From Patescibacteria group bacterium (GTDB lineage: Bacteria > Patescibacteriota > Minisyncoccia > Phycocordibacterales > Phycocordibacteraceae), in assembly GCA_038057055.1 (NCBI GenBank), contig JBBUDY010000019.1:25101-89100 (forward strand): a stretch of 64,000 nucleotides of DNA, given 5' to 3'. Below the pieces are notes generated by a model that searched no databases, was not told the origin of the DNA, and saw only the letters and a list, made by a program, of their open reading frames with translations. Every line of letters starts with the position of its first letter. The stretch's first letter is position 1. Shown in pieces: positions 3,612-35,825 of this stretch. Both the position numbers and the translations under genes were made by a program.

Positions 3612-4061
3612 TTATGATCTTTTTATGTAGAACTTCCTTTGCAGATAGTTCTCTAGAACCTCGCGGCTTGGGAAATAAAGCGGGGATGGTAAATTGTGGA
3701 GATCAAATGATTGCCATTCGGTGATTTCATTGGGTTCCATAACTTTTGCTTCACCCTCCCATGAGTGAGAGACGAGGCCGACAGTCAGGAAGTGGGCGTG
3801 CTCGTTTCTACAGTTGTGTACAGAAATAACCTGCGGATCCTGGATATCGATGCCCGTTTCTTCTTTGGCCTCTCGAACTGCTCCTGCTTCAATAGACTCT
3901 CCCCATTCGAGTTTTCCCCCGGGTAAACACCATTCTCCGGCACTACGGAAAGCTGAGTCAGCTTTGTCAGGATCGGGGTGGCGTCGCCCAAGAACAATGT
4001 GGCCATTCTTCTCTAAAATGACCCCGAATCCGGCACCTACTCTTTTCTTTTCTTCAGACAT
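3612..4061 (-). CDS. NUDIX hydrolase
   Basis: Nudix box GGKLEWGESIEAGAVREAKEETGI. Confidence 0.88.
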   Translation of the reverse strand: MSEEKKRVGAGFGVILEKNGHIVLGRRHPDPDKADSAFRSAGEWCLPGGKLEWGESIEAGAVREAKEETGIDIQDPQVISVHNCRNEHAHFLTVGLVSHSWEGEAKVMEPNEITEWQSFDLHNLPSPLYFPSREVLENYLQRKFYIKRS

Positions 4062-8572: not shown

Positions 8573-10243
8573 ATGGACCTACCGTTTGATGTTACCCATG
8601 AGGAGGGAAAGCTTGCAGAGATACGTGAGCGAGAAGAGGAGGATGTGGCGCGCATCCTCTCTGACAAATATGGTATACCCTACGTCGACCTCGCATTAAA
8701 GCAGATTGACAACGATGCACTTCGCATTATTCCTGAAGCGCAAGCCCGTGCCGCCGAGGCAGTTGCCTTCGCAAAAACCGCAAAGGTACTTTCGCTCGCT
8801 ATCCATAATCCAAATAATCCAGCTCTCGAAAAACTTTCTGCCGACCTCGCTGAACGCGGGTTCTCCACCCATACCTCCCTTGCCTCAAAGAAAAGTTTAG
8901 ATAAGGCATTTGCGCGCTACAAAGAACTCTCCTTTGCTACCGAATCAAAACCGGGTGTTTTTACTATCACCCAAGAAACATTCACAAGAGTCATAAATAA
9001 AAGTAATACACTTGCTTCTTTCACTCATGAACTCGATGTCGCGGTCTCCGAGAAATCACTTGATCGCGTCTCGCACCTGCTTGAAGTCATTCTCTCCGGT
9101 GCATTTGCGCTTCGTGCGTCTGATATTCACTTTGAGCCGGAAGAAACAAAGACTCTTCTGCGCTTGCGTATTGACGGCGTCTTATTCGATACTCTATTTT
9201 TTGACCCCGCGACATTCCATCAGCTCAACTCTCGCATCAAACTGCTCTCGGGCATAAAGTTGAATGTGAGCAATCAGGCGCAGGACGGTCGCTTCAGTGT
9301 TGAAAGGGACGGATTGCAAATCGAGATGCGTGTCTCCTTTATTCCGAGTAATTATGGCGAAACTATTGTGATGCGTATTCTAAATCCTGAAGCAACAAAA
9401 AAATCTACAAAAGATCTTGGTATTCACCCAAAACTTCTTGCACGACTTGAGACAGAAATACATCGACCAAACGGTATGCTTCTCAACACGGGACCAACCG
9501 GAAGCGGTAAGACGACCACGTTGTACACTTTTCTCCGAGAGATACACACACCAGAAATAAAAATCATCACGATTGAAGACCCGGTCGAGTATCATCTCGA
9601 GGGTATCGTGCAGACGCAAGTTGAAGGAGAAAAATATACGTTTGCCGAAGGGCTCCGCTCAATTGTGCGCCAAGACCCAGACATCATCATGGTCGGCGAA
9701 ATCCGCGACGGCGAAACGGCCAATATCGCTATCCAGGCAGCGCTCACTGGCCACTTCGTCTTCTCTACCCTTCACACCAACGACGCCGCCGGCACCTTCC
9801 CACGCCTCGTCGACCTTGGTGCAGACCCAAAGTCCTTTGGTTCGGCGGTCACTGTGTCAATGGCACAGCGACTTATGCGCACTCTTGATCCTGACAGAAA
9901 GAAAGAGCGATCCCTTACTGACGAAGAGAAAAGAATGATTGAAAAAGTGTTTGCCCCGCTTGCTGATAAATCACTTGTCCCTAAAAAAATAGAGACGGTA
10001 TGGGATCCTTCTCCCATAAGTGCAGATGAAACAGGTTATAAGGGGCGAGTCGGCATCCATGAAGCTATTTTTATGGACGATGAACTCGCTAACTTCATCC
10101 GTGATAATCCTCCCGAAAACGAGATCGCCAAATTGACGAGCAAGCAGGGCTACCTCACCCTCGCACAGGACGGTATTATCAAAGCACTCGCCGGCATCAC
10201 CTCCCTCTCCGAAGTCGCCGCCACCGTCGACCTTCCTCGATAA
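8573..10243 (+). CDS. pilB: Type IV pilus / type II secretion assembly ATPase (PilB/GspE family), copy 1
   Basis: Walker A GPTGSGKTTTLY, Asp and His boxes (VGEIRD, TGHFVFSTLHTN), N-terminal T2SSE_N-like region. Confidence 0.9.
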   Translation: MDLPFDVTHEEGKLAEIREREEEDVARILSDKYGIPYVDLALKQIDNDALRIIPEAQARAAEAVAFAKTAKVLSLAIHNPNNPALEKLSADLAERGFSTHTSLASKKSLDKAFARYKELSFATESKPGVFTITQETFTRVINKSNTLASFTHELDVAVSEKSLDRVSHLLEVILSGAFALRASDIHFEPEETKTLLRLRIDGVLFDTLFFDPATFHQLNSRIKLLSGIKLNVSNQAQDGRFSVERDGLQIEMRVSFIPSNYGETIVMRILNPEATKKSTKDLGIHPKLLARLETEIHRPNGMLLNTGPTGSGKTTTLYTFLREIHTPEIKIITIEDPVEYHLEGIVQTQVEGEKYTFAEGLRSIVRQDPDIIMVGEIRDGETANIAIQAALTGHFVFSTLHTNDAAGTFPRLVDLGADPKSFGSAVTVSMAQRLMRTLDPDRKKERSLTDEEKRMIEKVFAPLADKSLVPKKIETVWDPSPISADETGYKGRVGIHEAIFMDDELANFIRDNPPENEIAKLTSKQGYLTLAQDGIIKALAGITSLSEVAATVDLPR

Positions 10244-10248
10244 ACTCT

Positions 10249-11622
10249 ATGGGTCTCTCGCTTATATTTTTTCTTTTATTCATAACAATCGTTGTTAGTA
10301 TCGGTTTTGTTTCCTCTCGAGAAGAAACCGAAGATGGTTTTATGATTGCTGAACGTAAGGTGGAGGGGGTCCAGGTTGCTGCCACAATGAGCGCTGCTTT
10401 CTTTGACGGGTTTATGTTGTCTGTCTACATAGCCTATATCTATCAATATGGTTTTTCTGCTATCTGGATGTTTGTCGGCTTAGCGCTCGGGCTGTTGTTA
10501 CTCAAGAAATATGCGTGGCGAATTAAACAGAAAGCGGATGAGTTGAAGGTGTATTCGATGCCGGAATATTTTTATAGGATGTTGGGAAAGAGAAATGGGC
10601 TCATGTTTTCGTTGTTTCTCGTACTCCAATTTTTTCTTATACTGATTGTTAACCTCATAGTCAGTAGTAAGGTCTTATCGGCTATTTTTCCCATTTCATA
10701 TGTATTCGCTTTGAGTATCGGAGGGGTAATCGTTTTATCGTATCTTTTGCTCGCAGGATTTAAGGCGGTCGTAAGGACGGATTTCTTTCAAGTCATCATT
10801 GGGCTTATTATGGCGTTCACGGTATCCGTTTATCTGTTTGGTAAAACCCACATCCCGGCTGCAGAGTTTAGTCTCGGGGCACTCGGTCTTGGGGACACTC
10901 TCGGTTTTGTGATCCTTGGTGGTCTCGGAATGATGGCCGCTCCTGATTTATGGCAACGAATATTTGCAACAAAGGATGAAAAGAATTTGCGGCGGGGGCT
11001 CAACTATTCAGTCGTTATACTTATGGTATTCGCGGTTGTGGTTAGTGTCATTGGACTCGTTACAAAACAATTTTTTCCGGGCATCCTCCCTGAAGATGCC
11101 CTCGTCACCGGGTTTTCCCAACTGCTGCCTTTCGGACTTAAAGAACTTGGTATGATACTTTTGTATGCGGTGACACTCTCGTCAACGGATACCGTCACCT
11201 TTGTCGTCTCATCAATCTTTACGCGCGACCTCAATAACTACACAGAGAAATATAGCGCGACCTCCATGCGGAGGCTCACCCGCTTCTTCATGGTTGCTTT
11301 TATCATTCTCGCGCTCATCGTCGCTGTTTCATATCACGACATCATGCAGCTCGGGTTTTCGCTGGCGAGTTTGAACCTTGCGCTCTTCCCCGTGGTATTT
11401 GGATCACTCTATTGGAAGCTGAAACAAAAAGCGGTGTTTTGGAGCTTGGTTCTTGGGTTTCTAAGCATTCTTATACTGTTTGTCACGAGTCAGCTGAACC
11501 CACAAAACGCAATCATCTCATTGCCGGTTGTCTTATTCTCACTAATTATTTTTCAAAAACTTCTCAAGGCAGATTCTCCGCCTCTCGCCGAAGTCGCCGC
11601 CACGGTCGACTTGCCGAAATAA
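10249..11622 (+). CDS. Sodium:solute symporter (SSS) family transporter; C-terminus formed by a pilB-tail repeat
   Basis: About 12 TM helices. AGFKAVVRTDFFQ and PDLWQRIFATKDEK motifs are SSS-like. The last 14 codons duplicate the pilB tail. Confidence 0.7.
   Translation: MGLSLIFFLLFITIVVSIGFVSSREETEDGFMIAERKVEGVQVAATMSAAFFDGFMLSVYIAYIYQYGFSAIWMFVGLALGLLLLKKYAWRIKQKADELKVYSMPEYFYRMLGKRNGLMFSLFLVLQFFLILIVNLIVSSKVLSAIFPISYVFALSIGGVIVLSYLLLAGFKAVVRTDFFQVIIGLIMAFTVSVYLFGKTHIPAAEFSLGALGLGDTLGFVILGGLGMMAAPDLWQRIFATKDEKNLRRGLNYSVVILMVFAVVVSVIGLVTKQFFPGILPEDALVTGFSQLLPFGLKELGMILLYAVTLSSTDTVTFVVSSIFTRDLNNYTEKYSATSMRRLTRFFMVAFIILALIVAVSYHDIMQLGFSLASLNLALFPVVFGSLYWKLKQKAVFWSLVLGFLSILILFVTSQLNPQNAIISLPVVLFSLIIFQKLLKADSPPLAEVAATVDLPK
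11581..11622. repeat. pilB 3'-terminus repeat, copy 2 (PLAEVAATVDLPK*)
   Basis: Aligns to 10202-10243. Contains the identical 15-nt core CCGAAGTCGCCGCCA. Confidence 0.9.
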
Positions 11623-11632
11623 AGTAGGGGTG

Positions 11633-11641
11633 TGGTATAGT
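11633..11641 (+). promoter_or_regulatory. Extended -10 promoter TGgTATAGT, 6 nt before ATG 11648
   Basis: The motif TGTGGTATAGT is identical to the one upstream of hicB (49283-49293, minus strand). Confidence 0.5.
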
Positions 11642-11647
11642 TTATAT

Positions 11648-11863
11648 ATGAGCACCGTAACGATTCCCAAACAAGAATATCGAAGTCTGAAGCGTCAATC
11701 AGATGCGTATCGTGCTATTGCCGCCGGACGATTTGAATATGTGATCCGCGATAGCGTGGAAACCGTCATGAAAGATTTCGAAAAAACCGGGTTGTATAAC
11801 AAAAGATTCCTGGCCGATCTAGAAAAAGGACTGCGAAGGTCTTCTGTGTATAAGAATGCATGA
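11648..11863 (+). CDS. Putative antitoxin (partner of RelE/ParE-like toxin)
   Basis: 72-aa ORF whose stop overlaps the toxin start (ATGA). No recognisable family. Confidence 0.5.
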   Translation: MSTVTIPKQEYRSLKRQSDAYRAIAAGRFEYVIRDSVETVMKDFEKTGLYNKRFLADLEKGLRRSSVYKNA

Positions 11864-12108
11864 AAATCGCTCCGCTCCATGCGGACGTGACTGTGTATTT
11901 GCGTAAGCGTCAGTTGCTTCGTAAGTGGGATAAGGCGTCTAGACTTTTTGAGACAAACATTCGTCATCCGTCGTTAAATACGGAGCTTATGGAACCACAT
12001 TGGCGCGGCGTGTATTCTTTCAGAATCGATAAGAAATACCGTGCGATGTTTCTTCCAATCTCAAATGACAACGTAGAGATCATTGGAATTACAAATCATT
12101 ATAAATAA
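11860..12108 (+). CDS. RelE/ParE-superfamily toxin
   Basis: 82 aa. RHPSL...YRAMF pattern shared with the toxin at 30456-30701. Typical TA gene pair geometry. Confidence 0.6.
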   Translation: MKIAPLHADVTVYLRKRQLLRKWDKASRLFETNIRHPSLNTELMEPHWRGVYSFRIDKKYRAMFLPISNDNVEIIGITNHYK

Positions 12109-12147
12109 CGATTGACAGGATGTAACCGTTGTATATACTTCGGGTAT

Positions 12148-12432
12148 ATGAAAACTGCCATAAGCTTCAAGATAGACACAGACGTCCGCAACCGAGCACG
12201 AATTGTTGCTAAGAAAATCGGCGTGCCTCTTTCAATGGTCGTGAACCAGCAATTGAAGCAGTTTGCGAATAATCGAAGTATTGAGTTCTATGAGCCACTT
12301 ATCCCGAATGCGAAGACTCGAAAAATTCTCGATGAGGCCATGCGAGATATTAAAGAAGGTCGAGAGGACAAATTCTCTCCCGCATTTACGAATATAAAAG
12401 ATATGGACCAATGGCTTGATAGAAAGGCATGA
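12148..12432 (+). CDS. RelB/DinJ-family antitoxin
   Basis: MKTAISFKIDTDVRNRARIVAKKIGVPLSMVVNQQLKQF is an RHH/DinJ-like N-terminus. Overlaps the toxin start. Confidence 0.7.
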   Translation: MKTAISFKIDTDVRNRARIVAKKIGVPLSMVVNQQLKQFANNRSIEFYEPLIPNAKTRKILDEAMRDIKEGREDKFSPAFTNIKDMDQWLDRKA

Positions 12433-12692
12433 TTGTCATTTATTCTAAAAAATTCCGAAGGAATTACGAGAAGCTTCCACGTAAGCTGCAGGAAAAATTT
12501 AAGCACCGCCGAAACTTATTTCTTGAGAATCAGTTCGACTCGATTCTAAACAATCACCAATTATATGATCCATATGCAGGATGCCGAAGCATAAACGTAA
12601 CGGGTGATTACCGCGCCGTTTTCTATCACGAAAGCCCGGGTATCATCCAATTCATTGCTATCGGCACACATCACGAACTTTTTGGCACATAA
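12429..12692 (+). CDS. RelE/YafQ-family mRNA interferase toxin
   Basis: 87 aa. KKFRRNYEKLPRKLQEKF...GDYRAVF...IGTHHELF pattern. Confidence 0.7.
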   Translation: MIVIYSKKFRRNYEKLPRKLQEKFKHRRNLFLENQFDSILNNHQLYDPYAGCRSINVTGDYRAVFYHESPGIIQFIAIGTHHELFGT

Positions 12693-12693
12693 C

Positions 12694-12744
12694 AGCAGCA
12701 CCTCGCTTGCCGAAGTCGCCGCCATGGTCAACCTCCCGCGTTAA
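12694..12744. repeat. pilB 3'-terminus repeat, copy 3 (orphan; SSTSLAEVAAMVNLPR*)
   Basis: 17 codons align to 10193-10243. Starts 2 nt after the toxin stop and is not part of any ORF. Confidence 0.9.
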
Positions 12745-27604: not shown

Positions 27605-28264
27605 TTAGGTGTCGAGACGGATAGGATTCTCGAGTTCGCCCGGGTTGAAAGAGCGATACAGAAGCTCGATGACCTCTTCAGTACCGAGCGGGACCGCACG
27701 GACGCCGACGCCCGCGAGCCCGCTCCCGACGAGCGTCATCCTTTGTTCGAGTTGCGCCTGCTCCTCTGCAAAAGAGGTTTCAGAATTAGCATCTTTCTCC
27801 GCGGCATTTTCATGACGCAGGAAATTCACTGTTTTTGTAGCAGAGAAGTGAGGGGAGTACGGCACGATGACATAAAAAGATTTTGTCATGATATTTGCCT
27901 GGTCGGCAAAAGAACGGATGAACTCAATATATTCATGAAGCTGGACTCGCATAAGCTCGGTTTTTTGCTCCGTCTCTTTTTCAGCGAGGAGCGCGAGGTA
28001 CGGACGCAGGTCCATCTTTCGTGAATTGATAACGATTTGAATTGAGAAATCGAGCGTATTGAGGAAATTCTGAAAACCGAGAATGATTGCGTGCTGCTCC
28101 TCAGTCGACTTAAGACCGAAATTAATCGCGGAACAAATCAGGACACCGCGGTAACTACTGTCTTTGAGGATAATAACGCCATTCCGGATTTCCTTCACCG
28201 GGACGAATTGTTGCGTTGCATTTGCAGAGGCGAGTGCCATATCAGGATGTTTTTTGCATACCAT
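27605..28264 (-). CDS. VirB4 N-terminal-domain-like protein (split from the ATPase)
   Basis: QFVPVKEIRNGVIILKDSSYRGVLICSAINFGLKSTEEQ resembles the N-terminal region of VirB4/TraC-type ATPases. Stop lies 2 nt before the ATPase start, in a different frame. Confidence 0.5.
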   Translation of the reverse strand: MVCKKHPDMALASANATQQFVPVKEIRNGVIILKDSSYRGVLICSAINFGLKSTEEQHAIILGFQNFLNTLDFSIQIVINSRKMDLRPYLALLAEKETEQKTELMRVQLHEYIEFIRSFADQANIMTKSFYVIVPYSPHFSATKTVNFLRHENAAEKDANSETSFAEEQAQLEQRMTLVGSGLAGVGVRAVPLGTEEVIELLYRSFNPGELENPIRLDT

Positions 28265-28658
28265 TTGAAGGATTCTGCACGTCGAGTGACCACGCGAGCT
28301 CGGTGAGTTTCCCTCGTGTGAGCTTGGGCGTATGGCGGACCACCGGTGCAGTGACCATCTCTTTCTTTACGTTTTTTGGTTCCTCATGCTTCCAGAGGAA
28401 GAGCTTCGGACGTATATAATAGTTGAAACCGGATTCCACCATTTCAATAAAGGGCTTTCCATTTATTTTGTAGAACGCGAGCGCCGCAACAAAGCCTGCG
28501 ACCGGTAGTGAGAGGAGTACCGCGAAGATGATTGGTACATATGAAAAGAACACGACACAGAGCCCTGCCCCACCGGCGAGATAGATGAATTGCTTTAAGG
28601 TCAAAGGGCCAATAATCTTGTCCTCAACCCCGATGAATTGCGGAACCTGGTATTCCAT
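28242..28658 (-). CDS. PrgI/VirB3-like small membrane protein
   Basis: MEYQVPQFIGVEDKIIGPLTLKQFIYLAGG N-terminus plus two TM helices, as in PrgI-family proteins next to VirB4. Confidence 0.6.
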   Translation of the reverse strand: MEYQVPQFIGVEDKIIGPLTLKQFIYLAGGAGLCVVFFSYVPIIFAVLLSLPVAGFVAALAFYKINGKPFIEMVESGFNYYIRPKLFLWKHEEPKNVKKEMVTAPVVRHTPKLTRGKLTELAWSLDVQNPSNGMQKTS

Positions 28659-28765
28659 TACTCATTAGTATAGCAGTAGTGCATAACGAAAATGTGGAAT
28701 TATACAGGGTGTATCGTTATAGTGTGCGACCTGTTCTTTGGGTTGGGTTAGGTAGGGAGACCAAT

Positions 28766-32144: not shown

Positions 32145-32753
32145 ATGACCTACACCGCAAAGACATTTAACCTGCCAGCGCTCGAGGGGATTTCAGAAAA
32201 GCAAATCAAAGTACATCTCGCGCTCTACGAGGGTTATGTGAAAAATATAAATCTGATGATGGAAACGCTTCATGGCTATGCAGCATATGGCGACAAAGCA
32301 ACTGAAGGCGACAAGCTCGCAATCGCGGAACTGCGTCGGCGATTCGCGTTTGAATTCGACGGGATGCGCCTTCACGAATTTTATTTTGAACAGTTCGAGG
32401 GAGAAAAAGGCGGGAGTCCAGAATCAGGGCTTGCAAAGGTGGCGGCAGAGAAATATGGCAGCGGAGAAAATTTCTTGAAGCACATTCGAGAAGTGGCAGG
32501 AAGTCGCGGTATCGGTTGGGTCGTCGTCTATGCTGATCCGATTGCAAAAACAATTCACACTACCTTTGTGGGCGACCATGAAGTCGGTCAGCTCGCCGGG
32601 CTCCCAGCACTCCTTGCACTCGACCTCTGGGAGCACGCATATATGGTGGACTATGTGCCGGCAGAGAAAAAGAATTATATTGATGCTTTCTTCGCGAACT
32701 TGAATTGGTCAGTCGTCGAGAAACGCTTCGACACGGCGATGAGCGCCGCATAA
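32145..32753 (+). CDS. Fe/Mn superoxide dismutase
   Basis: HLALYEGYV, FEFDGMRLHEFYF and C-terminal DLWEHAYMVDY metal-ligand motif. Confidence 0.9.
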   Translation: MTYTAKTFNLPALEGISEKQIKVHLALYEGYVKNINLMMETLHGYAAYGDKATEGDKLAIAELRRRFAFEFDGMRLHEFYFEQFEGEKGGSPESGLAKVAAEKYGSGENFLKHIREVAGSRGIGWVVVYADPIAKTIHTTFVGDHEVGQLAGLPALLALDLWEHAYMVDYVPAEKKNYIDAFFANLNWSVVEKRFDTAMSAA

Positions 32754-34165
32754 GCGACGAGGACAAGCACAAATGGGAACTGCTCGATTGTGAATGCTGC
32801 GAATGGGAGCGCGGAACTCTTTTCTGCAATAAAGATGAAGTAGCGGGTGATAATAAAGACCGGATAGCCGACGATAGTAACAATGACTGGGAAGAAAGGG
32901 CCAACCGTCATACCGACGACGCCCGCGATTACCGACCACGCCATCGCGAGCGGTACGAGTGGGTTCACGAGCAGGTTCGCCGGTAGAGCGACGAGCGAGA
33001 AGAGCCCGATGTCATAGAGTAAGAGCGGCAATACCGAGATTTGTGCGGCGAGCGTTGTCGCAACGACATTTTTCCAAAAAGGCCATAAGCGAGTCATGCG
33101 CGCTTCAAAGATTGGTGCAAGCCAGATGATGCCTGCGGTTGCGGCGACCGAGAGACCGAAGCCGGGGTCGAAGACGAGATAGAGCGGATTCCACATGAGC
33201 ATGAGGAGGACGGTGAAGAGGAGTGCGCGACTCGCGGCATAGCTCTTGCCGGTCGCACGCGCATAGAGCGCGATGACCGCCATAATCGCGGCACGCACGG
33301 CCGTGGCAGAGATGCCAGCTATCCCGACAAAGAGCAAGAGCGCCGCCCCGCCGGCAAAGAACTGCAGCCGGCGGGGCATGAGTAAAAATGCGAAGAACGC
33401 CATGATCCATTCGGCGACGATCATCACGTTGTAGCCGGAGAGCACAATGATTTGCACGAGCCCGGAGCGCGTGAACGCCTCTTTGAGCTCGGCACCAAGC
33501 CCCTCCTTCCCTCCGATCACGATGCCGCCTGCGAGTGCCGCATCAGGATTCGGCAGTGCACGATTGAGGCCGTCGAGGAATACATGTTTAATACGAGCGA
33601 GTGCAGCCGGTACCGAGTACCATGGTGCCGGTTCGACAGTGTAGATCGAGCCATATTGGATAAGGAAGCGGACACCGCGCGCCTGCAGGTATTTGTCATA
33701 GCGGAAGGTGCGGCCGCCGTCTGTCTCAAATGCATGCGGGAGCGAGAGCGTCCCATACACGCGCACGCGGTCGCCAACGCGCACGTCTGCAGAGAGCGGC
33801 ATCACTGCGAGTACGCCAACCTCCTCACTCCCCTTTTCCACCGAGAGCGCAATACGCTGATTCTTCTCGCGTACATCAGGATCACTCACGACCACTCCCT
33901 CATATTGCACACGATGTTTCAAATCCCCCACGAACGCTTCCGGCAGTGGCGTATCAGCAACCGTCGAGCGCACCATTCCAAGTGCAACAAAAATAAAAAA
34001 CACAGCGACGAGTGAGTACACTCGCCGCTCTTTTAAAAAAGCCGCGGCGCCAAGAAGCGCCACGAGGAGCATTACAAACACAATCGGTTCCCACCCAAAA
34101 CTAAAAACCGACCGCACCCCCACCCCACTCGCAAATCCCGAAACAACAGCAAGGAGCGCGCTCAT
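32675..34165 (-). CDS. comEC: ComEC/Rec2-family DNA internalisation channel (membrane domain form)
   Basis: Polytopic protein. RSGLVQIIVLSGYNV competence-domain motif. N-terminal OB-like region. Confidence 0.8.
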   Translation of the reverse strand: MSALLAVVSGFASGVGVRSVFSFGWEPIVFVMLLVALLGAAAFLKERRVYSLVAVFFIFVALGMVRSTVADTPLPEAFVGDLKHRVQYEGVVVSDPDVREKNQRIALSVEKGSEEVGVLAVMPLSADVRVGDRVRVYGTLSLPHAFETDGGRTFRYDKYLQARGVRFLIQYGSIYTVEPAPWYSVPAALARIKHVFLDGLNRALPNPDAALAGGIVIGGKEGLGAELKEAFTRSGLVQIIVLSGYNVMIVAEWIMAFFAFLLMPRRLQFFAGGAALLLFVGIAGISATAVRAAIMAVIALYARATGKSYAASRALLFTVLLMLMWNPLYLVFDPGFGLSVAATAGIIWLAPIFEARMTRLWPFWKNVVATTLAAQISVLPLLLYDIGLFSLVALPANLLVNPLVPLAMAWSVIAGVVGMTVGPFFPVIVTIVGYPVFIITRYFIFIAEKSSALPFAAFTIEQFPFVLVLVAYAALIAVSKRFSTTDQFKFAKKASI

Positions 34166-34413
34166 TTATAAATATCTCGTCGGTGACCAACGCCTTCGAT
34201 ACTTACCAGATCATTACTGACTGTATAGGTCGTACGATAGTTACCAACACGGAGCTTATAGAGGTTCCTCAACTCCCTATGCAATTTCTCATGCTGGAGG
34301 TGCTCAAAATTTTCTTTAAGCCAGGTTACTTTTTCTACAACTCTCTCTGCAATGACAGAGTCGAGCTTATCTAGATTCGCAAGAGCGGTGGTACTCCATC
34401 TAACGGAGACCAT
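34162..34413 (-). CDS. RelE/ParE-family toxin
   Basis: NLYKLRVGNYRTTYTVSNDLVSIEGVGHRRDIY is a classic RelE/ParE C-terminus. Stop overlaps the comEC ATG. Confidence 0.8.
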   Translation of the reverse strand: MVSVRWSTTALANLDKLDSVIAERVVEKVTWLKENFEHLQHEKLHRELRNLYKLRVGNYRTTYTVSNDLVSIEGVGHRRDIYK

Positions 34414-34588
34414 ATTTTTTCATCACTTCAGCATGCGAAATATATTTTTGTTTTCCCTGCATCCTCTTGCGCAGTTTCAACAAGAAACTTCTTTTGAGTT
34501 GAAGCCCTTCATCAGGATCACCAAGGAACTCGAGCAATTTCTGCTCGACGATGGCTCCTATTTGTTTATTGAGTTGCGCAGTGGTCAT
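34400..34588 (-). CDS. Antitoxin of the RelE/ParE pair
   Basis: 62 aa starting MTTAQL. Overlaps the toxin start. Start chosen because TGGTATAAT lies 7 nt upstream. Confidence 0.6.
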   Translation of the reverse strand: MTTAQLNKQIGAIVEQKLLEFLGDPDEGLQLKRSFLLKLRKRMQGKQKYISHAEVMKKYGLR

Positions 34589-34595
34589 GCGGAAT

Positions 34596-34604
34596 ATTAT
34601 ACCA
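34596..34604 (-). promoter_or_regulatory. Extended -10 promoter TGGTATAAT (minus strand) with TTGAAA -35
   Basis: Minus-strand reading: TTGAAAtaagtgattaTGGTATAATattccgcATG. Confidence 0.6.
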
Positions 34605-34633
34605 TAATCACTTATTTCAACAGGTATCAAAGA

Positions 34634-34653
34634 CTTGTCGCTATAGCGACAAG
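34634..34653. promoter_or_regulatory. Perfect 20-bp palindrome CTTGTCGCTATAGCGACAAG (likely TA operator)
   Basis: Lies just upstream of the TA promoter. The core CGCTATAGCG recurs at 34690-34699. Confidence 0.5.
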
Positions 34654-34719
34654 TCGTGGATAGGTACTTCTCGTGTGTACCTTAATTAACGCTATAGCGT
34701 AAAACAAGGTACATGAGAT

Positions 34720-34740
34720 TGTAGACACCGGGTGTCTACA
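34720..34740. other. Perfect hairpin TGTAGACAC-CGG-GTGTCTACA abutting the orphan comEC fragment
   Basis: 9-bp stem. Marks the exact junction between the orphan comEC 5' fragment and the TA cassette. Confidence 0.5.
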
Positions 34741-34803
34741 GAAAAACGACTGCACCCCTACCCCACTCGTAAATCCCGAAACAATGGCGATAAGGACGCT
34801 CAT
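34741..34803 (-). repeat. comEC 5'-terminus repeat (orphan; MSVLIAIVSGFTSGVGVQSFF)
   Basis: 21 codons align to 34103-34165 (MSALLAVVSGFASGVGVRSVF). Retains the ATG. Confidence 0.9.
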
Positions 34804-34825
34804 ATATCTTTATGGTAGCGCGAGG

Positions 34826-35305
34826 CTAAAGTGTTTTCTCAAGCTCCTCGACATCGACTCTATCTACTTCGCGGTTGAGTTTCTTCTTGTATTCGATAAG
34901 AGTTGCTTTGAGAATTAATGGGACCTCAACCCCATATATTTCCATCAGTTGAAAATTCTTCAAATCGACACGAGCCGAAACCCAAGTTTGTGAAGTTTCG
35001 TCAAACTTTTTTGCATCATATGCGCCGCTTATATCAATCCGTTGCCCTCCATACGAAAGTGTAAGCAGAATCAAATCCCAATGATCATCTTTGTATTGAG
35101 TTGGTCCATGAATTATATAAGGACGAACTTCAGGTAATATTTTTTCAAAATCTGCTTCTGGAATATCAAAATCTATATCGTGCAACTCACGCTGTACTCC
35201 ATACGCACGAGCCGCAAATCCCCCCGCGATTTGAAAAGGTATTTGATGTTTCTTAAATAGTCCGACAATCCATCGAAATGCTGCTTCAGTATCTCGTGTT
35301 TCCAT
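34826..35305 (-). CDS. Nucleotidyltransferase-fold protein (ANT(2'')/lincosamide-NT-like)
   Basis: AGGFAARAYGVQRELHDIDFDIPE fits the GG-x(n)-DxD NTase motif. Confidence 0.55.
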   Translation of the reverse strand: METRDTEAAFRWIVGLFKKHQIPFQIAGGFAARAYGVQRELHDIDFDIPEADFEKILPEVRPYIIHGPTQYKDDHWDLILLTLSYGGQRIDISGAYDAKKFDETSQTWVSARVDLKNFQLMEIYGVEVPLILKATLIEYKKKLNREVDRVDVEELEKTL

Positions 35306-35314
35306 ACGGAATGA

Positions 35315-35731
35315 TTATGTTCCACGATCCATCGCTTCGTTGGCGAGGGCGTCGGCGTCACTATTTTCAGCACGGAAGACGTGGTTGAAAGAAACAACGC
35401 CGAATTGTTCGATGACTTTTTTCAGACGCGCGTGCTGTTCTTTAAGAACTGGATGCTTCACTTTGTACTGGCCCTTCATCTGCTTCACCACCAGCTCGCT
35501 GTCCATTTTGACTGTCACCTCTACTGCATCCGTTTTCTTTTTTAGAAGTTTCGCCAATGTTTCGAACGCAAGAATCACCGCTTCGTATTCGGCGAAGTTG
35601 TTGGTCTGGTGACCGAGAAATTTTGAAACGCTCGCGACCGAATTGCCGAGCTCGTCGCGTATCATCGCCCCTGCCCCACTCGGTCCCGGGTTCCCCCGCG
35701 ACCCCCCGTCAGCATGGATAGTGAATTTCAT
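35315..35731 (-). CDS. rnhA: Ribonuclease HI
   Basis: HADGGSRGNPGPSGAG and NNFAEYEAVILAFE catalytic DEDD context. Confidence 0.85.
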   Translation of the reverse strand: MKFTIHADGGSRGNPGPSGAGAMIRDELGNSVASVSKFLGHQTNNFAEYEAVILAFETLAKLLKKKTDAVEVTVKMDSELVVKQMKGQYKVKHPVLKEQHARLKKVIEQFGVVSFNHVFRAENSDADALANEAMDRGT

Positions 35732-35825
35732 TCCGCCTACTATACGTGGATTTGACTCCAGTAACAATCAAAAGTAAGATGTCTCCAGAGTTCCCCAGGC
35801 ACCAACCAGTTTTGGAGGAGGCATC

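Follow-up and report, generated by a model that had tools for sequence, protein, structure and literature searches.

The locus studied here raises the question of why the beginning of comEC should occur twice in succession, with a toxin-antitoxin (TA) pair between the copies. The genomes of Patescibacteria (CPR) are tiny and contain few elements that can be recognised as mobile, and these bacteria are believed to rely on DNA uptake through ComEC. The original prediction, made for the 64,000-nucleotide stretch of patescibacterial DNA analysed here (hereafter, the window), was that a TA module had been wedged, in a single insertion, between comEC and its original 5' end and promoter, leaving the competence channel likely transcribed from a TA-autoregulated promoter. 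Comparison with related loci, which are cited below by number (L001 and so on), indicates instead that the window contains one instance of a cassette slot that recurs throughout the clade, between RNase H and comEC, in Kaiserbacteria-type Patescibacteria. We found no description of this locus in the literature, including a paper on horizontal gene transfer in aquifer Patescibacteria, some of whose nzgw MAGs were used here. The features on which the argument rests are the following, with coordinates given within the window.

32675-34165, minus strand: comEC, the functional gene, 496 aa (Pfam Competence, 4.7e-42, plus DUF4131)
34103-34169, minus strand: functional R, comEC nt 1-63 with 4 nt upstream, joined to the gene body
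34162-34413, minus strand: RelE/ParE-family toxin, 83 aa (PF05016 ParE_toxin, 1.6e-10, 41.8 bits; cutoff 23)
34400-34588, minus strand: antitoxin candidate, 62 aa, upstream of the toxin, start ATG at 34588
34596-34620, minus strand: TA promoter region, with an extended -10 TGGTATAAT at 34604-34596 and TTGAAA at 34620-34615
34625-34662, no strand: I2, a 38-bp near-palindrome with a perfect 24-bp core at 34632-34655
34676-34713, no strand: I1, a 38-bp near-palindrome; the core CGCTATAGCG is common to I1 and I2
34720-34740, no strand: junction hairpin TGTAGACACC-C-GGTGTCTACA, directly 3' of the orphan R
34741-34807, minus strand: orphan R, a displaced comEC start of 21 codons with its ATG intact
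34826-35305, minus strand: nucleotidyltransferase-like accessory gene, 159 aa, the upstream cassette (weak PF10706 match, 2e-3)
35315-35767, minus strand: RNase H (Pfam), the conserved left border of the slot

The duplication itself is as predicted, with the first 21 codons of comEC recurring upstream as an orphan that keeps its ATG. The two copies form a direct repeat (34104-34169 versus 34742-34807, 66 nt, 82% identity); the orphan lies 638 nt upstream of the functional copy and shares 51 of 63 nt with it over the 21 codons. Since the best of 200 shuffles reached 34/63, a chance origin of the pair is ruled out, and no other pair of copies of the comEC start exists within the window. The counts first given for the codon changes, four synonymous and six conservative, also stand, the six being non-synonymous and the differences as a whole mostly synonymous or conservative. 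From this point on, we refer to the repeat as R, which across the relatives consists of an optional leaderless promoter and the first ~63 nt of comEC. In the window, the functional copy is of 'type A' (SGVGVRSVF) and has no internal terminator-like hairpin, and a -10-like TACCAT (34817-34812) is found near the orphan. R was also considered as a DNA-uptake sequence and rejected, there being no further copies in the window, nor any outside the slot in other loci.

What lies between the copies is, as had been claimed, a TA pair of RelE/ParE type. In addition to its PF05016 domain, the toxin has RelG/Rv2866 as its nearest solved relative (PDB search, 1e-4), and both matches place it with type II TA toxins. 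The candidate antitoxin overlaps the toxin gene by 14 nt, precedes it at every locus examined, and occurs together with it in the window, L059, L062, L066, L157, L159 and L160, as expected of a type II partner that is co-inherited with its toxin. The unit is therefore like known type II RelE/ParE operons in its toxin, its small overlapping upstream partner and the retention of the pair across lineages. It is unlike them in that the antitoxin, which matches nothing in Pfam, NCBIfam or the PDB, fits no described family, and a search of it for a recognisable DNA-binding domain found none; the predicted structure has three helices (pLDDT 72, with a low pTM of 0.29) and no fold match in the PDB. 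Because of these two features of the antitoxin, autoregulation of the TA unit is an assumption. A further difference from type II operons is the presence of a third gene, comEC, which is joined to the pair in five lineages by an overlap of 4 nt (ATGA) between its ATG and the TGA stop of the toxin, the overlap having been correctly noted from the outset.

The promoter assigned to the TA unit holds in part. The extended -10 TGGTATAAT is a good match, and TGTTATAAT or TGGTACAAT is found at the same distance before the antitoxin ATG in L059, L066, L157 and L158. TTGAAA, in contrast, lies only 13 nt upstream of the -10, too close to serve as a properly spaced -35. The -10 ends 7 nt before the antitoxin ATG, which suggests that the TA mRNA is leaderless. 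Leaderless promoters also appear to be usual for comEC in the relatives. A -10-like motif lies 5-8 nt before the ATG of 30 of 47 comEC genes at occupied sites, 19 of these having the extended form TGnTAnnAT. At empty sites it precedes 5 of 20, and the R copies linked to the TA pair all lack it. The comEC of the window likewise lacks the arrangement usual in its relatives (TGnTAnnAT, 6 nt, ATG). This absence, together with the overlap with the toxin stop and the conservation of the junction in five lineages, makes it plausible that comEC is transcribed by read-through from the TA promoter, and the gene is probably co-transcribed and translationally coupled with that of the toxin.

Three hairpins are predicted on folding the spacer between the orphan and the TA pair (z = -5.65). 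The one at the junction, described earlier as perfect and now confirmed as such, also follows the orphan R in L056 and L158, and in L158 its stem carries one compensatory change from A-T to G-C. I1 is found in relatives directly 3' of the RNase H stop codon (L152, L066, L136 and L056). I2 contains the perfect palindrome reported earlier at 34634-34653, although its perfect part is really 24 bp (34632-34655) rather than 20. Its proposed role as the operator of the TA unit is not supported from either side: copies of I2 with 91-97% identity are present in L024, in L136 and, twice, in L011, each without this TA pair, and I2 is absent upstream of the TA pair in L059, L066, L157 and L158, whose antitoxins are about 76-95% identical to that of the window. 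In L136 the stem is conserved and the centre is variable. On this distribution we regard I2 as a generic intergenic hairpin of the slot, not specific to the TA pair. Two other identities for the palindrome were set aside, that of a dispersed MITE or REP element, as it is unique in the window and slot-restricted in the relatives, and that of an operator for the PaaX-like regulator that it flanks in L011, as the window contains no PaaX-like homologue. No Rfam family was found between 32.5 and 36.5 kb at E <= 1.

Orthologues of comEC were found in 48 + 80 loci, and the order RecJ-RNaseH-[slot]-comEC-SOD is kept in all relatives. A census of the slot comprised 67 distinct related Kaiserbacteria/Paceibacterota loci, all from metagenome assemblies, so that a few junctions could be chimeric. 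The slot is empty in 20 of the 67, with the RNase H stop and the comEC ATG overlapping, contains 71-400 nt in 9, and exceeds 400 nt in 38. Occupied slots hold 0.1-3.6 kb of shuffled cassettes, from one to several per stack, and many of these are TA modules. Their TA modules are of the RelE/ParE, HicAB, MazF/PemK, HigB-like and PIN types, and the other cargo includes NUDIX, ASCH, nucleotidyltransferase-like and methyltransferase-like genes, among others. The majority of added cassettes end in a fresh comEC start, and with some of them the previous start persists as an orphan. Orphan R copies occur in 15 of the 67 loci, twice over in 2 of them, and are missing from the remaining 52; L066, which lies outside the census, also has two. 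No R copy lies outside the slot, and all are on the same strand as comEC. R closes with a hairpin resembling a terminator, followed by a U-tract, in about half of the genomes; of the functional copies, about half have a 10-bp GC hairpin and then U5-6, ending at nt ~62-68 of comEC. Most untruncated orphans end at the same place, directly after hairpin and U-tract, while several others are truncated at nt 14-57. On the opposite border, copies of the RNase H 3' tail (the last ~45 nt, hereafter T) occur in 9 loci, mostly as in-frame fusions to the ends of cassette ORFs, with two just upstream of comEC. The comparison with relatives that had been called for thus bears out the TA pair as accessory DNA between copies of the comEC start, and makes of it one of many cassette states.

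Several loci show the cassettes in different combinations. The cassettes of L056 are ordered R-A-R-B-R::comEC, as against B-R-A-R::comEC in L086 and PIN-R-A-R::comEC in L087. PemK follows RNase H in L041, NUDIX-R in L035 and TA-R in L066, and a gene for a 110-aa membrane protein is found in L027, L046 and L059. L037 shows a before state, in which the functional R comes after a 153-aa gene; L021 shows the after state, in which the same gene and its R (91.5% identical, and now an orphan) are followed by a NUDIX cassette with a new R. L076, a relative that co-occurs with the window, has HicAB between its orphan R and comEC, in the very place of the window's TA pair, and shares with the window a 256-nt block of 100% identity that starts in the RNase H tail, with flanks at ~80%. 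The R copies are mosaic, and in L056, L012 and L046 the orphans are of type A while the resident comEC is of 'type B'. Two strains that were compared differ over the 1491 nt of comEC by only 2 SNPs, both within R. No donor tract within comEC could be mapped by sliding-window identity, since all relatives are 65-88% identical throughout. The junction of toxin stop and comEC ATG is identical in the window, L059/L088, L066-69, L157 and L158/159, which represent five lineages. L066-68 go a step further: there the R linked to the TA pair is an orphan too, and a PemK cassette separates it from the real comEC. These arrangements indicate that the TA pair and the comEC start downstream of it travel as a single unit. 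Vertical inheritance of TA-R::comEC with repeated losses is not separable from horizontal spread. A search for an 'excised' strain without the TA pair, by way of the 90% ComEC protein cluster, returned TA-linked variants only.

We therefore favour, at a probability of roughly 0.65, a slot that is filled by recombination with R, T and the flanking core genes serving as portable homology. By this mechanism, cassettes would recombine on these sequences, probably after DNA uptake, and so pass from one lineage, or one place in the stack, to another. An incoming cassette with its own R would push the resident comEC start upstream, so that comEC would be intact after each insertion, only the R joined to its body would work, and the adjoining cassette would set its expression signals. 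In the window, the three hairpins after the orphan would insulate the TA promoter from upstream transcription, and the toxin would act against any cell in which the 63-nt repeats recombine and the cassette is lost. Plain double-crossover homologous recombination produces no duplication by itself.

A dedicated site-specific system, resembling an integron or att accretion, is possible as an alternative and in our view unlikely. Cassettes would then excise as circles and insert just past the hairpin and U-tract, at comEC nt ~63, by means of a recombinase encoded elsewhere, the sites being R with its hairpin, the neighbouring hairpins, or both. The recurrence of orphan ends at nt ~62-68 across independent cassette types would follow from this, and it is just there that a hairpin and U-tract end in about half of the functional R copies, yet several orphans are cut at nt 14-57 and the type A copies of the window have no hairpin at all. 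The junction hairpin behind the orphan in three loci, with its compensatory change, and the I2 stem kept around a variable centre in L136 have the look of such sites. The cassette order is shuffled in the manner of integrons, and there are the type A orphans beside type B comEC genes. Against this, no integrase or transposase family was present among the cassette proteins scanned (none of the Pfam/NCBIfam recombinase families in roughly 35 proteins), viral contigs scanned for the R core and for I2 contained chance 17-18-mers only, attC-like R''/R' cores are absent, and several of the examined cassettes have a promoter-like extended -10 of their own. Nor would a single att site in R explain the duplicated RNase H tails. 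The recurrent orphan ends do hint at a site preference over random breakpoints.

It is distinctly improbable that the orphans are functional in themselves, as silent cassettes or micro-genes that either donate A/B variants of the ComEC N-terminus or act as small regulatory promoter-to-terminator units. The majority of those inspected do still have their ATG and stay open for ~21 codons, the changes in them being conservative; many retain the promoter motif, and type B orphans retain the terminator hairpin. The functional R of one strain variant has the orphan's allele at nt 34. The copies are, however, direct repeats, so that a crossover between them deletes the cassette instead of switching the start. 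Orphans are moreover truncated or without ATG in L011, L027, L035 and L059, and are missing from 52 of the 67 genomes.

The idea that a mobile TA module inserted once, locally, at the 5' end of comEC, with target-site duplication and separation of the original start and promoter, has very little left in its favour. Direct repeats of the target do flank the TA pair, and members of the same TA family occur in unrelated contexts in L062 and L160, so that the module can move. Repeats of 63-66 nt with 81-82% identity are, however, unlike a target-site duplication, and their mostly synonymous or conservative differences are those expected of copies that diverged as functional gene starts. An IS element or transposon was rejected on the length and divergence of the repeat and because neither a transposase ORF nor terminal inverted repeats were found. 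The window reads, in order, RNase H, nucleotidyltransferase-like gene, orphan R, junction hairpin, I1, I2, the promoter-antitoxin-toxin block, and R joined to comEC. The orphan thus follows an accessory gene, one that is missing in most relatives (present in L050, truncated in L076), and not the ancestral neighbour RNase H, and so does not mark the original position of the comEC 5' end, as had been supposed. Nor does a single wedge agree with a TA-R junction that is the same in five lineages and whose R is, in L066-68, orphaned behind a further cassette, or with the unrelated cargo that shares this architecture in at least 15 loci. An assembly artefact (a chimeric contig or collapsed repeat), which the original prediction had itself named as a refutation and to which metagenomic data and the breaking of Logan contigs at the I2 palindrome might point, can be dismissed as far as assemblies can tell, as different samples, assembled independently in ENA, Logan and NCBI (L001-L010), show the identical arrangement, with the orphan-to-comEC stretch spanned in L001, L003 and L005-L009, and homologous arrays are found in MAGs from other sites.

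If recombination on portable homology is indeed what fills the slot, the locus would be a recurrent way for Patescibacteria to gain, stack and swap accessory genes with an important gene undamaged, each cassette bringing its own replacement start for the gene, with an extra RNase H tail kept on the other side. The slot is a defined place in which to seek accessory genes, especially TA modules, in uncultured bacteria, and its arrays offer natural before and after states for the study of recombination. It also suggests a connection, open to experiment, between TA promoters and how the DNA-uptake channel is expressed. Where R closes with a terminator-like hairpin, this structure lies inside codons 1-21 of a comEC mRNA that is probably leaderless, and may represent a new attenuator. 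A more speculative and rather doubtful extension is that the slot is a cassette-capture platform with no need of an integrase gene beside it, whose recombination site is the promoter-to-terminator 5' module of comEC. Each captured cassette would therefore rewire expression of the uptake channel through which it may have entered, and the TA-bearing lineages would have placed competence under TA control. That the repeat spans from transcription start to the end of the U-tract would then be explained by a hairpin-recognising enzyme that acts in trans, or by a mechanism linked to transcription.

Four known systems share features with this slot. Chromosomal integrons frequently contain TA cassettes, which have their own promoters and are thought to stabilise the array. 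Like them, the slot holds an ordered stack of small, shuffled cassettes, frequently TA modules, with boundary repeats that contain hairpins. Unlike them, it has no attI/attC consensus and no common Pc promoter, its cassettes carry promoters, and its boundary repeat is a functional gene start. No IntI lies beside the array, all loci being flanked by RecJ-RNaseH and comEC-SOD, and attC cores (RYYYAAC/GTTRRRY) are by inspection absent from I1, I2 and the junction hairpin, structures that are themselves missing at many boundaries. Elements of att-flanked CIME/ICE arrays and of islands at tRNA 3' ends bring a replacement gene end that leaves the gene intact, and partial copies mark their borders. 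Here too, direct repeats of the end of the target gene flank the element and the gene is restored. The elements of the slot are, in contrast, only 0.1-1 kb long, with no integrase family among those scanned; the target is a 5' end that includes the promoter, and the repeats are diverged and mosaic rather than identical cores. Neither an integrase among the scanned slot proteins nor a free or viral attP form was found, the two scans of viral contigs (R core and I2) yielding chance matches only.

The minimal mobile elements of Neisseria have a variable gene content between fixed, conserved neighbours and are exchanged through transformation and homologous recombination. By the definition quoted in PMC3787668, their gene organisation can be the same in distant genomes and different in close ones. 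The slot is like them in its variable content between the same two conserved genes, in the lack of mobility genes among the scanned cassette proteins, and in a host presumed to take up DNA; the pattern of organisation in close and distant genomes is also alike, as in L076 versus the window. To our knowledge, no description of minimal mobile elements has them stacked in arrays or bordered by internal repeats of duplicated gene ends. The orphan modules of rhs and cdi loci, known in arrays of up to about eleven, are fragments of the main gene with a short conserved coding piece that are stacked beside it, enabling homologous recombination (PMC3967940). In the orphans of the slot, too, part of what is conserved in the coding sequence of the main gene stands beside variable cargo, and it is to these rhs and cdi modules that we liken the arrangement, albeit at the 5' end and with unrelated cargo. 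In rhs and cdi, the part exchanged is the 3' toxin tip of the same gene, with an immunity gene, and the orphans have no start signals; in the slot, the cargo is unrelated to ComEC, what is displaced is the 5' start, with its ATG and often its promoter, and the end of a second gene, the RNase H tail, is duplicated as well.

On the minus strand of window positions 33900-35100, which was read and its ORFs listed, comEC is preceded by a RelE/ParE-type toxin-antitoxin (TA) pair and, beyond it, by a second copy of its own start:

32675-34165, minus strand: comEC (Pfam Competence 4.7e-42, DUF4131 1.8e-15)
34162-34413, minus strand: RelE/ParE toxin, 83 aa (PF05016)
34400-34588, minus strand: upstream partner of the toxin (antitoxin candidate), 62 aa
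34627-34803, minus strand: 58-aa ORF whose first 21 codons repeat the comEC start

The same listing places the toxin TGA stop over the comEC ATG (ATGA). The direct repeat extends over 66 nt at 82% identity (34104-34169 versus 34742-34807); its coding part matches at 51 of 63 nt, the codons that differ being 4 synonymous and 6 non-synonymous, and shuffled controls (n=200) reach at best 34/63. A hairpin (34720-34740) and I2, one of two near-palindromes between the orphan start and the TA pair, are each unique within the window. ORFs, Pfam and repeat alignment thus confirm the orphan start, the intervening TA pair, the hairpin and the palindrome of the original prediction, although the perfect part of I2 is 24 bp (34632-34655) rather than 20 bp, within a 38-bp near-palindrome (34625-34662). 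The interpretation placed on these elements is partly supported overall. Independent assemblies of groundwater samples from Hainich (ENA, Logan and NCBI) show the arrangement again, which rules out an assembly error. ENA contigs pass through I2; Logan contigs from different runs (L002, L004, L010, L073, L074) start or stop within it (34632-34654), on either side, which may reflect population heterogeneity or a palindrome-linked artefact.

The 3' ends of comEC and a convergent Fe/Mn superoxide dismutase gene overlap by about 79 nt (window 32675-32753), as they comparably do in most relatives, and no metallo-beta-lactamase domain was detected in the window ComEC (496 aa). About 5.5 kb from comEC, at about window 28200-28700 (position taken from L001:6478-6974), lie PrgI/TcpE-like and TraC/VirB4-like genes, components of type IV secretion. 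Three copies of a 50-nt repeat at 10194-12744, 68-80% identical, 1.1-1.4 kb apart and each with a terminal TAA, probably represent the 3' termini of paralogous genes in tandem.

A ComEC scan led to 48 Kaiserbacteria/Paceibacterota genomes and 80 metagenome contigs (loci are given L-numbers), and all retrieved loci share the synteny RecJ, RNase H, gap, comEC and convergent superoxide dismutase. In a census of the 67 loci that include the end of RNase H as well as the start of comEC, duplicates removed, the gap measures at most 70 nt in 20, 71-400 nt in nine and 0.4-3.6 kb in 38. In several small-gap loci the stop codon of RNase H and the ATG of comEC overlap, as in L018 (...GGAGCATGACG). Cargo of the gap includes ASCH, HIT, PIN, histidine phosphatase, tRNA-binding/CsaA, a P-loop kinase-like gene, a PaaX-like regulator and a DUF2878 membrane protein, NUDIX-like and methyltransferase-like genes assigned by sequence motifs only, PemK/MazF toxins (L035, L041, L066), HicAB (L076, L136) and Gp49/HigB with an HTH partner (L020); a nucleotidyltransferase-like gene is part of the window's gap content. 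Given this diversity, the window TA pair is accessory cargo of a hypervariable slot, as is that nucleotidyltransferase-like gene, which encodes 159 aa and lies upstream of the orphan.

All-against-all comparison and alignment of the gaps revealed stacked, modular cassettes with duplicated gene ends at their borders and a shuffled order, and this comparative pattern is robust. For instance, with R denoting a copy of the comEC start, cassettes A (159 aa, minus strand) and B (232-250 aa) are arranged R-A-R-B-R::comEC in L056 and B-R-A-R::comEC in L086, and in L087 cassette A stands behind PIN (PIN-R-A-R::comEC). PemK lies directly 3' of RNase H (L041), after NUDIX-R (L035) or after TA-R (L066). 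L037 carries a 153-aa gene followed by the functional R, and L021 has the same gene and R (91.5% identity), now orphaned, then a NUDIX cassette and a new R; the two form a before/after pair. In L076, from a neighbouring well, RNase H is followed by the nucleotidyltransferase-like gene, an orphan R, HicB, HicA, a promoter and R::comEC. Its copy of that gene ends after codon 75, fused to the orphan. A 256-nt block (L076:201-456 versus window 35336-35081), made up of the RNase H tail and codons 1-75 of that gene, matches the window at 100%, and the sequence on either side at about 80%; its left edge is inside the RNase H tail. The block is a sign that co-occurring lineages exchanged DNA recently.

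With a profile spanning the start of comEC from -10 to +70, extra R copies were found in 15 of the 67 census loci, two of which hold two orphans, as does L066 outside the census. Every copy lies on the comEC strand inside the slot, with none elsewhere in the loci or the 64-kb window. Most orphans inspected are directly 3' of a plus-strand cargo gene, and most retain the ATG with an uninterrupted reading frame. Where they are not truncated, orphans run to comEC nt ~62-68; the others are cut to nt 14-57, apparently by later internal deletions; before one membrane-protein cassette, R ends at about nt 66 (L046), 47 (L059) or 45 (L027). The copies are also mosaic. To illustrate, the two L056 orphans are alike at nt 20-57 and unlike at nt 1-20, and the orphans of L056, L012 and L046 are of type A where the resident comEC is of type B. 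A strain variant of the window comEC (L156:51-1541 versus 32675-34165) differs at 2 of 1491 nt, both within the 63-nt R (G>A at nt 34, the orphan's allele, and G>A at nt 49), which could reflect gene conversion between the repeats or read mixing in assembly.

The type B start contains a hairpin, found in about half of the clade's functional comEC genes, with a 10-bp GC-rich stem and U5-6 in codons 12-21 (nt 34-63; L056:4034-4064, L024:4034-4058 and 3874-3898, L030, L043, L086); it is absent from the type A start of the window (34103-34135). In one stem pair A-U gives way to G-C, a covariation that goes with I/V and F/L codon changes. The element looks like a textbook intrinsic terminator in a probably leaderless mRNA and may act as a translation-dependent attenuator of comEC. 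Two more terminator-like hairpins lie in sense orientation in comEC codons ~34-54 (34065-34042 and 34029-34004, minus strand), and over 1.5 kb a scan counts 6 terminator-like sites where 1.3 would be expected.

The second duplicated end, T, copies the final ~45 nt of RNase H (...DALANEAMDRG*). It occurs in nine loci and in at least five forms an in-frame extension at the end of a cassette ORF, so that unrelated cassette proteins terminate in ...ALANEAMDRG*; elsewhere it lies just upstream of comEC. Copies include:

L027:2719-2766, fused to ASCH
L094:4367-4399, fused to HIT
L136:5333-5374, fused to a 168-aa ORF
L081:2523-2557
L098:5959-5999, abutting comEC
L148:2253-2295, 12 nt from comEC

We infer that R and T are portable homology arms: a taken-up [R-cassette-R...comEC] segment would insert by homologous recombination at any R, and the nearest cassette would supply the comEC start and its expression signals. 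No recombinase family was found in any cassette protein scanned. A site-specific mechanism directed by the hairpins is a less likely rival: in its favour, untruncated R stops at the end of the hairpin and U-tract. A single attachment site within R leaves the T copies unaccounted for. Duplication of T fits recombination by homology to the conserved junction instead.

Relatives of the toxin family (47-83% identity) include several placed in the slot:

L059/L088: RNase H, SET, two ORFs, R, 163-aa ORF, R, membrane-protein gene, 14-nt R remnant, TA, R::comEC
L157: RNase H, TA, comEC, the gap otherwise empty
L158/159: RNase H, two ORFs, orphan R, hairpin, TA, R::comEC
L066-68: RNase H, I1 (the other near-palindrome), R, TA, orphan R, PemK (minus strand), R::comEC

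The junction ...CGACGAGAT(A/G)T(T/C)TATAAATGA... is common to all of them, and in L066-68 the TA-linked R is itself orphaned. The ATGA fusion was therefore not made by a wedge insertion within the window's lineage, as first proposed; it belongs to a cassette with a comEC start at its own 3' end. The same TA family occurs without R away from comEC (L062, L160). Its antitoxin is an undescribed 62-aa family (42 clusters, all annotated hypothetical) with invariant E15, K17, E20, F21 and G23-D26 (EF.GDPD motif) and no Pfam, NCBIfam, PDB or fold match; autoregulation is assumed. By analogy with the TA cassettes of chromosomal integrons, loss of the pair by recombination between the 63-nt direct repeats around it would be penalised.

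A TA-operator role for I2 is not supported, each occurring without the other. I2-like sequence, 91-97% identical, occurs without the window's TA pair in L011, L024 (between orphan R and comEC) and L136 (before HicAB, the stem retained and the centre TATA changed to TACC), and is absent upstream of the TA in L059, L066, L157 and L158, whose antitoxins are ~76-95% identical to the window's. In L011 it flanks a PaaX-like regulator gene (L011:3249-3959; PF20803, 2e-19), the second copy preceding comEC; L026 has a homologue in the interval from RecJ to RNase H, and the window contains none. I1 (34676-34713) recurs directly 3' of the RNase H stop in L152 and L066, and the junction hairpin 3' of the orphan R in L056 and L158, where the L158 copy carries a single compensatory change of A-T to G-C. 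Folding of the spacer between the orphan and the TA pair gives three strong hairpins (-77.6 kcal/mol, z = -5.65), which we read as generic terminator/insulator-type slot elements; I1, I2 and the junction hairpin are also possible recombination sites.

TGGTATAAT is a good extended -10, ending 7 nt before the antitoxin ATG, and TTGAAA, only 13 nt upstream, is not properly spaced as its -35; the extended -10 and the 7-nt distance are the only upstream sequence conserved in all TA copies. In occupied slots comEC is usually preceded by TGnTA(C/G/A)GAT, 6 nt and ATG, a geometry that suggests a leaderless mRNA. A -10 motif precedes comEC in 30 of 47 occupied sites (19 with the TG extension), and 15 of 20 empty sites, where comEC abuts RNase H, lack one. 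The TA-linked R has no such motif, the toxin 3' end taking its position, and the window offers only a weak GATATT, not conserved in L059 or L066. Since the TA-linked R lacks a promoter motif, we infer that comEC would be expressed by read-through from the TA promoter and translational coupling via ATGA, the most economical reading.

No description of the RNase H/comEC slot was found in the literature, and it goes unmentioned in a paper on horizontal transfer in aquifer Patescibacteria whose data include some of the nzgw MAGs analysed here. In behaviour the slot is like a Neisseria 'minimal mobile element' hotspot (as defined in PMC3787668), it is similar to the arrays of displaced orphans in rhs/cdi loci (PMC3967940), and its resemblance to an integron array is superficial. 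Several traits set it apart from all three systems: one boundary repeat is a functional 5' gene module that often comprises a promoter and 21 codons, with a terminator in some cases and none in others; the other boundary repeat is the upstream gene's 3' tail; the cargo bears no relation to comEC, the anchored gene; and no integrase is associated among the cassette proteins scanned. The slot is a variation on the known architectures of recombination hotspots and cassette arrays, seen here in CPR bacteria with a DNA-uptake gene as its anchor.
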